In this document: positions 1 to 52,297 of the stretch, one piece after another
Layout of the letters: each line of letters starts with the position of its first letter
Numbering within the stretch: the stretch's first letter is position 1
Origin: Escherichia coli
GTDB taxonomy: Bacteria > Pseudomonadota > Gammaproteobacteria > Enterobacterales > Enterobacteriaceae
Length of the DNA stretch: 64,000 nt
NCBI RefSeq assembly: GCF_003790525.1
Contig: NZ_CP033635.1
Reading direction: 5' to 3' (one strand)
Notes under the pieces: model-generated
Told to the model about the DNA's origin: nothing
The model's input: only the letters and a program-made list of their open reading frames with translations
The model's database searches: none
Translations under genes and position numbers: made by a program

Positions 1-75
1 GGCGTAAACGCCTTATCTGGCCTACGGGAGCATTTGTAGGCCTGATAAGACGCGGCAAGCGTCGCATCAGGCTTG
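1..75. repeat. REP/BIME-like palindromic repeats (ggcgtaaacgccttatctggcctac ... gacgcggcaagcgtcgcatcaggc)
   Basis: Matches the E. coli REP consensus family (GCCKGATGCGRCG... and ...CGCCTTATCCGGCCTAC types); extragenic, downstream of ubiG. Confidence 0.75.
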
Positions 76-16979: not shown

Positions 16980-17008
16980 CCCGATAACTTTCGCTATCGG
17001 GTGTTTTT
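16980..17008. terminator. Bidirectional rho-independent terminator between yfaP and atoB
   Basis: Stem cccgata/tatcggg with a T-run on the + strand and a T-rich tract on the - strand. Confidence 0.6.
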
Positions 17009-24430: not shown

Positions 24431-27280
24431 TTGAAATACCTTGCTTCTTTTCGTACAACCCTGAAAGCCTCGCGCTACATGTTCAGAGCATTGGCGTTAG
24501 TGCTCTGGCTGTTGATTGCTTTTTCATCCGTTTTTTACATCGTTAATGCGTTACATCAGCGAGAATCGGAAATTCGTCAGGAATTTAATCTGAGTTCCGA
24601 TCAGGCTCAGCGCTTTATTCAACGCACCTCTGATGTGATGAAAGAGCTGAAGTACATCGCCGAAAATCGCTTATCGGCAGAAAACGGTGTGCTTTCCCCG
24701 CGTGGACGAGAAACGCAGACGGATGTGCCTGCGTTTGAACCGCTGTTTGCTGACTCTGATTGTTCCGCAATGAGTAACACCTGGCGAGGTTCTCTGGAGT
24801 CATTGGCGTGGTTTATGCGCTACTGGCGCGATAATTTTTCTGCGGCTTACGATCTCAACCGGGTATTTTTAATCGGCAGCGATAACCTCTGCATGGCCAA
24901 TTTCGGTCTGCGTGATATGCCAGTGGAACGCGATACCGCGCTAAAAGCTTTGCATGAACGCATTAATAAATATCGAAATGCACCACAAGATGATAGTGGC
25001 AGTAACCTCTACTGGATCAGCGAAGGTCCGCGCCCTGGCGTCGGGTATTTTTACGCGTTGACGCCAGTTTATCTGGCGAACCGGTTGCAGGCGCTTTTGG
25101 GTGTCGAGCAGACCATCCGGATGGAGAACTTTTTCTTGCCTGGTACGTTGCCGATGGGGGTTACCATTCTTGATGAAAATGGTCATACCCTGATTTCGCT
25201 TACCGGACCAGAAAGCAAAATTAAGGGCGATCCTCGCTGGATGCAGGAACGCTCCTGGTTTGGCTATACGGAAGGGTTCCGGGAGCTGGTGCTGAAGAAA
25301 AATCTGCCACCCTCATCGCTAAGCATCGTGTATTCGGTGCCGGTTGATAAGGTGCTGGAACGCATTCGCATGTTGATCCTTAACGCAATTTTGCTGAATG
25401 TGCTTGCCGGAGCTGCATTGTTTACTCTCGCGCGGATGTACGAGCGACGTATTTTCATTCCGGCGGAAAGCGACGCCCTGCGACTGGAAGAACATGAGCA
25501 GTTTAATCGCAAGATTGTCGCCTCCGCGCCAGTGGGTATCTGCATTTTGCGTACCGCTGATGGCGTCAATATTTTAAGTAACGAACTGGCGCATACCTAT
25601 CTCAATATGCTTACGCATGAGGATCGCCAACGGCTGACACAAATTATCTGTGGGCAGCAGGTCAATTTTGTTGATGTCCTGACCAGCAACAATACCAATC
25701 TGCAAATCAGCTTCGTCCATTCGCGCTATCGTAATGAAAACGTGGCCATTTGTGTGCTGGTGGATGTTTCTTCGCGCGTGAAGATGGAAGAGTCGTTGCA
25801 GGAGATGGCACAAGCAGCGGAACAGGCGAGTCAGTCAAAATCGATGTTCCTTGCCACCGTCAGTCATGAGCTGCGAACGCCGCTGTATGGCATTATCGGT
25901 AACCTGGATCTATTGCAAACCAAAGAGTTGCCGAAAGGCGTCGATCGTCTGGTGACGGCAATGAACAACTCTTCCAGCCTGTTGTTGAAAATTATCAGCG
26001 ATATTCTCGATTTCTCGAAGATTGAATCAGAACAGTTGAAGATCGAACCGCGTGAGTTTTCACCGCGTGAAGTGATGAACCACATCACCGCCAACTATTT
26101 ACCGCTGGTGGTACGCAAGCAGTTAGGCTTGTACTGCTTTATTGAACCGGATGTGCCAGTGGCCTTAAATGGCGACCCGATGCGTTTACAGCAGGTCATC
26201 TCCAACCTGTTGAGTAACGCCATAAAATTCACCGATACCGGCTGTATAGTTTTGCAAGTTCGCGCTGATGGCGATTATCTCTCTATCCGTGTTCGCGATA
26301 CCGGCGTGGGGATTCCGGCGAAAGAAGTCGTGCGCTTGTTTGATCCCTTCTTCCAGGTCGGAACGGGCGTACAGCGAAACTTCCAGGGGACCGGTCTGGG
26401 TCTGGCGATTTGTGAAAAACTGATCAGCATGATGGACGGCGACATCTCGGTAGATTCAGAACCGGGAATGGGCAGCCAGTTTACCGTGCGTATTCCGTTG
26501 TACGGCGCTCAGTACCCGCAGAAAAAAGGCGTGGAAGGGTTGAGTGGTAAACGCTGCTGGCTGGCGGTCCGCAATGCGTCGCTCTGTCAGTTCCTGGAAA
26601 CCAGTTTGCAGCGCAGCGGCATCGTCGTTACAACATACGAAGGGCAGGAACCGACTCCCGAAGATGTGTTAATTACTGACGAGGTAGTGAGTAAAAAATG
26701 GCAGGGTAGAGCGGTAGTGACCTTCTGTCGTCGCCATATTGGTATTCCGCTGGAGAAAGCGCCAGGGGAGTGGGTACACAGTGTGGCGGCCCCGCATGAG
26801 CTACCGGCATTGTTGGCGCGTATTTATTTGATCGAGATGGAGAGCGATGATCCTGCTAACGCTCTGCCGTCGACGGACAAAGCGGTCAGCGATAACGACG
26901 ATATGATGATTCTGGTCGTGGATGATCATCCGATTAACCGGCGTCTTCTGGCAGATCAGTTGGGATCGTTGGGCTATCAATGTAAAACCGCGAATGATGG
27001 CGTCGATGCGCTTAATGTACTTAGCAAGAATCATATTGATATCGTGCTTAGCGACGTCAACATGCCAAATATGGATGGTTACCGCTTGACGCAACGCATT
27101 CGTCAGTTGGGACTGACGTTGCCGGTAATCGGAGTAACTGCTAATGCGTTGGCTGAAGAGAAGCAGCGGTGTCTGGAGTCCGGTATGGACAGCTGCCTGT
27201 CGAAGCCGGTAACGCTGGATGTGATAAAACAGACGCTGACGGTATATGCCGAGAGGGTCAGGAAATCGCGGGAATCGTAG
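24431..27280 (+). CDS. rcsC: Hybrid sensor kinase RcsC, 949 aa
   Basis: HisKA (HELRTPL), HATPase and C-terminal receiver domains; K-12 length. Confidence 0.96.
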   Translation: MKYLASFRTTLKASRYMFRALALVLWLLIAFSSVFYIVNALHQRESEIRQEFNLSSDQAQRFIQRTSDVMKELKYIAENRLSAENGVLSPRGRETQTDVPAFEPLFADSDCSAMSNTWRGSLESLAWFMRYWRDNFSAAYDLNRVFLIGSDNLCMANFGLRDMPVERDTALKALHERINKYRNAPQDDSGSNLYWISEGPRPGVGYFYALTPVYLANRLQALLGVEQTIRMENFFLPGTLPMGVTILDENGHTLISLTGPESKIKGDPRWMQERSWFGYTEGFRELVLKKNLPPSSLSIVYSVPVDKVLERIRMLILNAILLNVLAGAALFTLARMYERRIFIPAESDALRLEEHEQFNRKIVASAPVGICILRTADGVNILSNELAHTYLNMLTHEDRQRLTQIICGQQVNFVDVLTSNNTNLQISFVHSRYRNENVAICVLVDVSSRVKMEESLQEMAQAAEQASQSKSMFLATVSHELRTPLYGIIGNLDLLQTKELPKGVDRLVTAMNNSSSLLLKIISDILDFSKIESEQLKIEPREFSPREVMNHITANYLPLVVRKQLGLYCFIEPDVPVALNGDPMRLQQVISNLLSNAIKFTDTGCIVLQVRADGDYLSIRVRDTGVGIPAKEVVRLFDPFFQVGTGVQRNFQGTGLGLAICEKLISMMDGDISVDSEPGMGSQFTVRIPLYGAQYPQKKGVEGLSGKRCWLAVRNASLCQFLETSLQRSGIVVTTYEGQEPTPEDVLITDEVVSKKWQGRAVVTFCRRHIGIPLEKAPGEWVHSVAAPHELPALLARIYLIEMESDDPANALPSTDKAVSDNDDMMILVVDDHPINRRLLADQLGSLGYQCKTANDGVDALNVLSKNHIDIVLSDVNMPNMDGYRLTQRIRQLGLTLPVIGVTANALAEEKQRCLESGMDSCLSKPVTLDVIKQTLTVYAERVRKSRES

Positions 27281-27282
27281 GA

Positions 27283-27363
27283 CGGATAAGGCGTTTACGC
27301 CGCATCTGGCATTCAGTGCAAATGCCAGATAAGACACTAACGCGTCTTATCTGGCCTACAGGT
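27283..27363. repeat. REP/BIME palindromic repeat cluster between rcsC and rcsB
   Basis: gacggataaggcgtttacgccgcatctggca ... gtcttatctggcctacagg, REP consensus family. Confidence 0.75.
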
Positions 27364-27365
27364 GA

Positions 27366-28016
27366 TTAGTCTTTATCTGCCGGACTTAACGTCACTGAAG
27401 AGAGATAATTCAGCAGGGCGATATCGTTCTCGACACCCAGCTTCATCATCGCAGATTTCTTCTGGCTACTGATGGTTTTAATACTGCGGTTCAGCTTTTT
27501 AGCGATCTCGGTCACCAGGAAGCCTTCCGCAAACAGGCGCAGAACTTCACTCTCTTTTGGCGAGAGACGCTTGTCACCGTAACCACCGGCACTGATTTTT
27601 TCCAACAGGCGAGAAACGCTTTCCGGGGTAAATTTCTTCCCTTTCTGCAGCGCGGCGAGAGCTTTCGGCAGATCGGTCGGTGCACCTTGTTTCAGCACGA
27701 TCCCTTCGATATCCAGATCCAATACCGCACTAAGAATCGCCGGGTTGTTGTTCATGGTCAGAACAATGATCGACAGGCTTGGGAAATGGCGCTTGATGTA
27801 CTTGATTAAGGTAATGCCATCGCCGTACTTATCGCCAGGCATGGAGAGATCGGTAATCAACACATGCGCATCCAGTTTCGGCAGGTTGTTGATCAGTGCT
27901 GTAGAGTCTTCAAATTCGCCGACAACATTCACCCACTCAATTTGCTCAAGTGATTTGCGAATACCGAACAAGACTATCGGATGGTCATCGGCAATAATTA
28001 CGTTCATATTGTTCAT
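27366..28016 (-). CDS. rcsB: Response regulator RcsB, 216 aa
   Basis: Start taken at MNNMNVIIADDHP; receiver plus LuxR-type HTH. Confidence 0.96.
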   Translation of the reverse strand: MNNMNVIIADDHPIVLFGIRKSLEQIEWVNVVGEFEDSTALINNLPKLDAHVLITDLSMPGDKYGDGITLIKYIKRHFPSLSIIVLTMNNNPAILSAVLDLDIEGIVLKQGAPTDLPKALAALQKGKKFTPESVSRLLEKISAGGYGDKRLSPKESEVLRLFAEGFLVTEIAKKLNRSIKTISSQKKSAMMKLGVENDIALLNYLSSVTLSPADKD

Positions 28017-31015: not shown

Positions 31016-31108
31016 TAAAAAAAACCGGATGCGAGGCATCCGGTTGAAATAGGGGTAAACAGACATTCAGAAATGAATGACGGTAATAAATAAAGTTAAT
31101 GATGATAG
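31016..31108 (-). ncRNA. micF: MicF antisense sRNA (93 nt)
   Basis: Reverse complement reads gctatcatcattaactttatttattaccgtcattcatttctgaatgtctgtttacccctatttcaaccggatgcctcgcatccggtttttttt; divergent from ompC with an intrinsic terminator. Confidence 0.93.
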
Positions 31109-31264
31109 CGGGAGATATTCTAGTTGCGAGTGAAGGTTTTGTTTTGACATTCAGTGCTGTCAAATACTTAAGAATAAGTTATTGATTTTAACCTTGAATT
31201 ATTATTGCTTGATGTTAGGTGCTTATTTCGCCATTCCGCAATAATCTTAAAAAGTTCCCTTGCA

Positions 31265-37417: not shown

Positions 37418-39076
<1,659 letters not shown>

Positions 39077-39082
39077 TGATGT

Positions 39083-39215
39083 GCCACATCCGGCATGGTT
39101 TGCCGGATGTGGCGTATGCTAATAAGACGCGTCAGCGTCGCATCAGGCAACCGGCTCGGGCGTTAGATGTCGGATGCGGCGTAACCGCCTTATTCGGCCT
39201 ACAGGTTGCAGCACT
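39083..39215. repeat. REP/BIME cluster between mqo and eco
   Basis: Multiple REP units (gccggatgtggcgtatgctaataagacgcgtcagcgtcgcatcaggc ... gatgcggcgtaaccgccttattcggcctac). Confidence 0.8.
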
Positions 39216-39225
39216 TCACAGCAGT

Positions 39226-39714
39226 TTAGCGGACAACCGCGTTGTCAATTTTCTCTTCCGCCTTCCAGACACGGTACTTCACATCCACATTGTCTGGCGT
39301 ATACACCACGATCGGCAGCTTGCTGTTGTAACGCAGCATTCCAGCATCGCCCAGATACGCGGTGACAAATTTCTTCTCTTTCTTGCCATCCGGGCAAGCC
39401 ATCATCGTGGAAACCGGCGAGCTAACTTTATCAAAGACATAATAATCATAGCCCCAGCCTTCCAGCGTTTTGCTTTCCAGCTTCCCGCCGAGACGATGCA
39501 AATTGCAGTCGACTTCCAGCGTCTGACCGATTAACAGTTCTACTTTCAGGGTAGATTCATCTTCTTGCGGAGTTAACTGAATCACCTGACGCTTCATGCC
39601 TTTTTCAGCTTGTGGATAAGGTGCGATTTTTTCCAGTGGCTGGACGCTTTCTGCCGCCCAGGCGGAAGTGGTGGCGAAAGCGGCAAACAATACTGCAGGT
39701 AGAATGGTCTTCAT
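39226..39714 (-). CDS. eco: Ecotin (periplasmic serine protease inhibitor), 162 aa
   Basis: Start at MKTILPAV; signal peptide; reactive-site region [13 protein letters not shown]. Confidence 0.95.
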
Positions 39715-52265: not shown

Positions 52266-52297
52266 AGGCCCGATGGTGATGCCATCGGGCTATTTTT
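52266..52297. terminator. Bidirectional rho-independent terminator between ccmH and narP
   Basis: Stem gcccgatgg / ccatcgggc followed by tattttt; overlaps the narP stop. Confidence 0.7.

Follow-up and report, generated by a model that had tools for sequence, protein, structure and literature searches.

The four intergenic sites flagged by the original prediction almost certainly belong to the REP (palindromic unit) family of E. coli as ordinary representatives and comprise three BIME-2-like Y/Z2 doublets and one solitary Y unit. Neither the type of element nor its occurrence at these loci is new. They lie in a stretch of 64,000 nucleotides of E. coli DNA (the window), and all positions below are window ORF coordinates. 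A scan of the whole window for the 17-nt tail motif of REPs, CGYCTTATCMGGCCTAC, with as many as three mismatches tolerated, returned six matches against an expectation of 0.34, taken as the mean of 100 dinucleotide-preserving shuffles. None of the 100 shuffles reached six matches, and no match in the window fell outside the four flagged sites. The head motif, which is shorter, discriminates less well, with 20 matches against 8.1 expected; its best matches are likewise at the flagged sites.

When the whole window was scanned with a fuzzy regex, the units between mqo and eco were missed, and semi-global alignment of the four spacers to the Y, Z1 and Z2 consensus sequences (as printed in PMC11208160) was used around the sites instead. 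This resolved seven REP units scoring 22-32 of 34-36 against the Y or Z2 consensus (Table 1); Z1 was the best-scoring type for none of the seven units in the four spacers. The count of seven applies to the 64-kb window only; K-12 carries 355 annotated REP elements (PMC4550694). The GTAG (CTAC) foot is kept in five of the seven units and is absent from those ending at 39114-39117 (GTAT) and 59354-59357 (CTGC). With the motif scan and the alignments in agreement, the prediction of REP-type palindromes at four intergenic sites is borne out.

Table 1. REP units, linkers, neighbouring genes and REP-crossing open reading frames in the window.
Feature	Position	Strand	Evidence or remark
Site 1 Y-type REP, 5' part (~8 nt) lost at window start	1-25	+	tail match 9-25, 1 mismatch
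Site 1 tail-to-tail linker GGGAGCATTT	26-35		read from sequence
Site 1 Z2-type REP	36-72	-	32/36 vs Z2; tail match 36-52, 0 mismatches
rcsC ORF	24431-27280		
Site 2 Y-type REP	27277-27310	-	28-30/34 vs Y; tail match 27277-27293
Site 2 head-to-head linker ATTCAGTGCAAAT, 13 nt	27311-27323		within naRNA4 match
Site 2 Z2-like REP	27324-27359	+	22/36 vs Z2; tail match 27343-27359, 1 mismatch
mqo	37430-39076	+	annotation
Site 3 perfect hairpin, 13-bp arms GCCACATCCGGCA / TGCCGGATGTGGC, 5-nt loop	39083-39113		inverted repeat, 100% complementary
Site 3 Z2-type REP, eroded foot GTATGCTAAT for GTAGGCCTGAT	39114-39148	-	27/36 vs Z2; head-motif match 39136-39148, 0 mismatches
Site 3 head-to-head linker Z2/Y, 20 nt	39149-39168		read from sequence
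Site 3 Y-type REP, two stem changes	39169-39202	+	26/34 vs Y; tail match 39186-39202, 1 mismatch
Site 3 tail-side linker of 113-bp BIME unit, 23 nt, to eco stop codon	39203-39225		homologous to K-12 inter-unit linker
eco	39226-39714	-	annotation; stop codon 39226-39228
Site 4 solitary Y-type REP, foot CTGC not CTAC	59324-59357	+	28/34 vs Y; tail match 59341-59357, 2 mismatches
ORF across REP, 152 aa	39076-39534	+	
ORF across REP, 34 aa	39046-39150	-	
ORF across REP, 63 aa	39174-39365	+	
ORF across REP, 66 aa	27169-27369	+	
ORF across REP, 143 aa	59311-59742	+	
ORF across REP, 67 aa	59197-59400	-	

Annotation places the sites between yfaL and ubiG (site 1), rcsC and rcsB (site 2), mqo and eco (site 3), and yejK and rplY (site 4). 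All four gene pairs are convergent, as had been predicted, and the gene names mqo and eco given in the prediction match the annotation. REPs occupy four of the seven convergent junctions of the window and none of its tandem or divergent junctions. All units are extragenic, the sole overlap with a gene being the rcsC stop codon, which falls within a GTAG foot. Genome-wide, convergent gene pairs account for the location of about 60% of E. coli REPs, and about 30% of convergent spacers contain a REP (bioRxiv 10.64898/2026.03.23.713779). The junction counts of the window, a small sample, agree with these published figures.

Over 40000-64000, E. coli SMS-3-5 and several further strains match the window with 100% identity. 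Strain 165 is identical to it at 38700-39700 and differs by 1-bp indels near either window end. In this strain the Y unit of site 1 is present in full as GCCGGATGCGGCGTAAACGCCTTATCTGGCCTAC (L008 1993-2026) and scores 32/34 against Y. REPs are indeed present in the predicted span of site 1 (1-75), but about 8 nt of the site lie before the first position of the window. The Z2 unit of this site reproduces exactly, at 36-46 on the minus strand, the natural IS621 target ATCAGGCCTAC, of which the window has no other exact copy; REP units are a documented natural target of IS621 (PMC11208160). The yfaL-ubiG spacer measures 138-140, 127 or 60 bp in different strains, and the 60-bp allele carries one degenerate Y. 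The GntR-family regulator gene by ubiG (909-1651) is frameshifted according to the strain 165 annotation.

At site 2, the Y unit matches the REP oligonucleotide co-crystallised with TnpA-REP at 31 of 32 positions (PMC3479197). The rcsC stop codon TAG (27278-27280) lies within the GTAG foot of this unit, in the window as in K-12, so that the coding sequence terminates within the repeat. The span predicted for this site, 27283-27363, does hold REPs; its start has to be moved to 27277. The head of the Z2-like partner is complementary to its tail (GCCAGATAAGAC...GTCTTATCTGGC), making it a near-perfect palindrome without a bulge, and it stops 6 nt short of the rcsB stop codon (27366-27368). An identical bulge-less variant forms the final unit of the four-REP array between rcsC and rcsB in K-12. 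The spacer measures 85 bp in the window and in 9 of 40 listed genomes; in most of the remainder, K-12 among them, it measures 199 bp, and K-12 contains two Y-Z2 doublets. The length step equals a 114-bp doublet; the window holds one doublet, corresponding to the first Y and the last Z2 of the K-12 array.

Site 4 consists of a solitary Y and hence is not a BIME. The unit is 19 nt past the yejK stop codon and folds at -20.4 and -19.4 kcal/mol on the two strands, with z of about -5 for both. The length of the yejK-rplY spacer is constant across E. coli. Taken over sites 1, 2 and 4, folds of the units or doublets have z scores from about -5 to -6.4.

The 149-bp spacer between mqo and eco is nearly all repeat. 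It had been predicted to be the largest cluster, with several units, and it is the largest in the window; its content, however, is two eroded REPs and one atypical hairpin, a minimal one-unit allele. The predicted start of the site at 39083 holds, but the BIME with its linker reaches the eco stop codon rather than ending at 39215. The perfect hairpin at 39083-39113 begins 6 nt past the stop codon of mqo. The two arms resemble a head-to-head pair of Y-REP heads, and the head motif matches on both strands. As RNA, the hairpin is predicted to fold at -28.1 kcal/mol (z -6.1). Of 5426 complete E. coli genomes, 5414 carry the hairpin, each as a single copy, and its arms do not vary across most of seven aligned strains. 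It is a locus-specific, atypical, REP-derived element. Two further strains have a GG insertion in the 3' arm, and in the O9:H10 strain NZ_CP062851.1 (L014 31-71) an internal deletion joins the 3' arm to the Z2 head end (TTATCAGGC).

The two REPs that follow this hairpin fold less well. The Z2 unit by itself forms a weak hairpin (z -1.4). The two stem changes of the Y unit give G-U pairs in the plus-strand (mqo-strand) RNA only and mismatches on the eco strand, and the corresponding z scores are -2.4 and +0.08. Because of this weakness as lone hairpins, the Z2 and Y units here may be decaying relics. The whole spacer folds at -71.5 kcal/mol as RNA of either strand, with z scores of -3.9 and -4.6, and on the eco strand Y and Z2 pair into one long REPIN-like hairpin. 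The strongest structure at mqo-eco in this strain is the hairpin at 39083-39113, not the two eroded REPs.

Comparison with other genomes revealed that the mqo-eco spacer of the window is the one-unit allele of a variable-number tandem array with a 113-bp unit (Z2-linker-Y-linker). Tandem Repeats Finder reported no repeat at this site in the window because a single unit is present, and the array becomes visible only by comparison with K-12 and other strains. The K-12 MG1655 spacer is 714 bp, in which the anchor hairpin is followed by 5.9 tandem copies of the 113-bp unit; another strain with a long spacer has 6.9 copies. For a census, a spread sample of 60 genomes was queried with the 3' ends of mqo and eco only, the match span reporting the spacer length. 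One unit was found in 37 of the 60 genomes, three units in 1, four in 3, five in 7 and six in 9, and in the remaining 3 the spacer was larger or interrupted, too long for the two ends to be joined. The one-unit allele matched end to end in 3449 of 5423 complete E. coli genomes (~63%). The comparison of copy number with other E. coli genomes that had been proposed alongside the prediction thus showed three sites to be polymorphic and the fourth, yejK/rplY, to be fixed.

Strain 2017-02-2CC (NZ_AP027764.1; L006 1110-2391) carries IS621, an IS110-family element with a bridge-RNA recombinase, within a Z2 of its mqo-eco array. The insertion is exactly at GTAG|GCCTGAT and is flanked on each side by the AG (CT) core. 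In the K-12 array (L002 1401-2066), Y units read GTCGG...CCGAC and GTTGG...CCAAC where the consensus has GCCGG/CCGGC; these paired stem changes are compensatory substitutions by which the hairpin is kept. The mqo-eco cluster may be the one named REP161 in EcoCyc. REP161 has been described, in two papers that give neither coordinates nor neighbouring genes, as a large REP region expanding between K-12 laboratory derivatives. A speculative and rather doubtful reading of the locus is that the 39083-39113 hairpin is a domesticated REP fragment serving as a fixed mqo 3'-end structure, and that the number of 113-bp units (1 to 7 or more) might be a heritable dial on eco/mqo expression or on local supercoiling.

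The window sites share with the E. coli REP/BIME-2 system the imperfect Y/Z2 palindromes of about 35 nt, their alternating inverted arrangement, their extragenic position at 3' ends and a variable tandem number of Y-Z2 units. The alternation is Y(+)/Z2(-) at site 1, Y(-)/Z2-like(+) at site 2 and Z2(-)/Y(+) at site 3. The tandem number varies from 1 to about 7 units at mqo-eco and between 1 and 2 doublets at rcsC-rcsB. Nothing essential differs; the mqo-eco units of the window are eroded (the GTAT foot and the two stem changes) and the array is down to one unit. As a class, BIME-2 elements are bound and cleaved by DNA gyrase (PMC2817692). The sites also resemble the REPIN/RAYT system in that an inverted REP pair folds into one long hairpin, which is the minimum-energy fold on both strands at site 1 and on the minus strand at sites 2 and 3, and in that most units have a GTAG foot. 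Mutagenesis has established that the GTAG foot and the bulge are required for TnpA-REP binding or cleavage (PMC3479197). In contrast to REPIN/RAYT, three of the window units are without these features, two through the altered foot and the 27324 unit through its missing bulge. No RAYT gene (tnpA-REP / yafM) is annotated within the 64-kb window.

An alternative assignment is that the doublets are genes for naRNA4-type nucleoid-associated small RNAs that act with HU in chromosome condensation. The Rfam naRNA4 model (RF02564) matched 27280-27356 on the plus strand with 65.5 bits, above the gathering score of 59.5, and matched 39117-39199 with 48.5 bits, below that threshold, the linker having a 7-nt insertion relative to the model. 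The architecture is also alike, since REP325 of K-12 (yjdM-yjdN) is composed of six Y-Z2 repeats, each a Y-linker-Z2 doublet, and the K-12 mqo-eco array likewise has six doublets (REP325: PMC4550694). However, the Rfam model amounts to a generic Y-Z2 doublet, and a match to it restates REP membership. REP325 sits between tandem genes of one operon, whereas the window sites are between convergent genes. A scan of the REP spacers found no promoter-like site. Moreover, a 2026 preprint reports that REP325/naRNA4 has no measurable effect on nucleoid compaction and acts locally in the 3'UTR (bioRxiv 10.64898/2026.03.23.713779). We consider the small-RNA assignment improbable and retain membership of the ordinary REP family for the doublets.

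The palindromes could instead be intrinsic (Rho-independent) bidirectional terminators that merely resemble REPs, being G+C-rich hairpins placed right after stop codons between convergent genes. Against this, no REP hairpin is followed by a T-run, and a scan of the spacers of sites 1-3 for a G+C-rich stem-loop with a T-run found nothing terminator-like. The sequences fit the consensus of a dispersed repeat and are not unique to their loci, and yejK/rplY has a separate classical terminator about 45 nt past its REP. The terminator reading is thus very unlikely. The classical hairpin, itself at about 59404-59416, is between an A-run and a T-run (59398-59427; AAAAAACCCCGCCGGAGCGGGGTTTTTT); it probably serves as the terminator of rplY and may act in both directions. 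Terminator-like sites are also present at the REP-less convergent junctions yfaP/atoB and ccmH/narP: the former has a one-sided site at 16980-17001, and the 34-bp spacer of the latter holds a bidirectional intrinsic-terminator-like hairpin at 52267-52291, with no REP.

The possibility that the sites are IHF-binding BIME-1 elements (RIP/RIB), in which Y and Z1 flank an L motif with an IHF site, bears on the IHF binding named among the roles in the original prediction. BIME-1 elements, too, are found at the 3' ends of transcription units (PMC2817692). Such elements have their own Z1 unit and an IHF consensus, and the window sites have neither: no unit is typed best as Z1, and the IHF consensus WATCAANNNNTTR is unmatched in all four spacers. 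The head-to-head linkers of 13 and 20 nt are short compared with the L motif of BIME-1, which is about 30 nt. BIME-1 membership is highly improbable on these grounds, and a role in IHF binding is unlikely here. Chance palindromes in G+C-rich intergenic DNA, which the modest enrichment of the head motif by itself would allow, can be dismissed with near certainty given the tail-motif excess over the shuffles, full-length alignments of up to 26-32 of 34-36 points and fold z scores down to -6. The IHF/BIME-1, intrinsic-terminator and chance readings were accordingly rejected, for want of Z1 and an IHF consensus, for want of a T-run, and on motif enrichment, respectively.

The roles listed in the original prediction are generic to the REP family, and we infer function at each window site from the literature on that family. 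As ordinary REPs, the units would form, at the 3' end of each converging transcript, RNA hairpins that block 3'-5' exonucleases and protect the upstream mRNA, and these hairpins would also attenuate read-through, partly via Rho. REP325 is a precedent, being both a partly Rho-dependent terminator and an mRNA stabiliser (bioRxiv 10.64898/2026.03.23.713779). That the three doublet sites have no intrinsic terminators agrees with the role in 3'-end stabilisation and attenuation published for REPs, if that role extends to these sites. At the DNA level, the alternating Y/Z2 arrays would belong to the gyrase-bound class, and the units would be expected to serve as substrates for TnpA-REP (RAYT) where the GTAG foot and the bulge are kept, and as IS621 targets. 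Direct copies would allow copy number to shift through slippage or unequal recombination, and at mqo-eco the conserved single-copy REP-derived hairpin beside the mqo stop codon would anchor the tandem array. REPs positioned no more than about 15 nt from a stop codon reportedly cause ribosome stalling and trans-translation (Liang, Rudd and Deutscher, 2015). Such stop-proximal stalling would concern rcsC, whose stop codon lies in the REP foot, rcsB, at a distance of 6 nt, and perhaps mqo, which is 6 nt from its hairpin.

The original prediction also held that REPs generate spurious ORF calls. Six ORFs of the window cross a REP (Table 1); RefSeq annotates none of them, and no Pfam family was found in the five that were scanned, that is, all except the 34-aa ORF at 39046-39150. 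These ORFs are spurious calls, in line with the prediction. Marking the spacers as REP/BIME averts calls of this kind, such as the 152-aa ORF at 39076-39534, and accounts for three convergent junctions that have no classical terminator. Length differences corresponding to the 113-bp array at mqo-eco and to the 114-bp doublet at rcsC-rcsB are to be expected in assemblies and strain comparisons. The IS621 target in site 1, together with the IS621-hit mqo-eco array of another strain, is a reminder that REPs are insertion hotspots. Beyond correct annotation the importance of the sites is small; the strain-variable 113-bp array with its conserved anchor hairpin is mildly interesting.

Two Rfam matches lie upstream of neighbouring genes. 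The MicF antisense RNA is at 31017-31110 on the minus strand, upstream of ompC (116.8 bits), and the ribosomal protein L25 leader is at 59749-59774 on the minus strand, upstream of rplY (46.9 bits). The yejO gene (53263-55854) is annotated as intact in SMS-3-5 and as a pseudogene with an internal stop in the near-identical strain 165.
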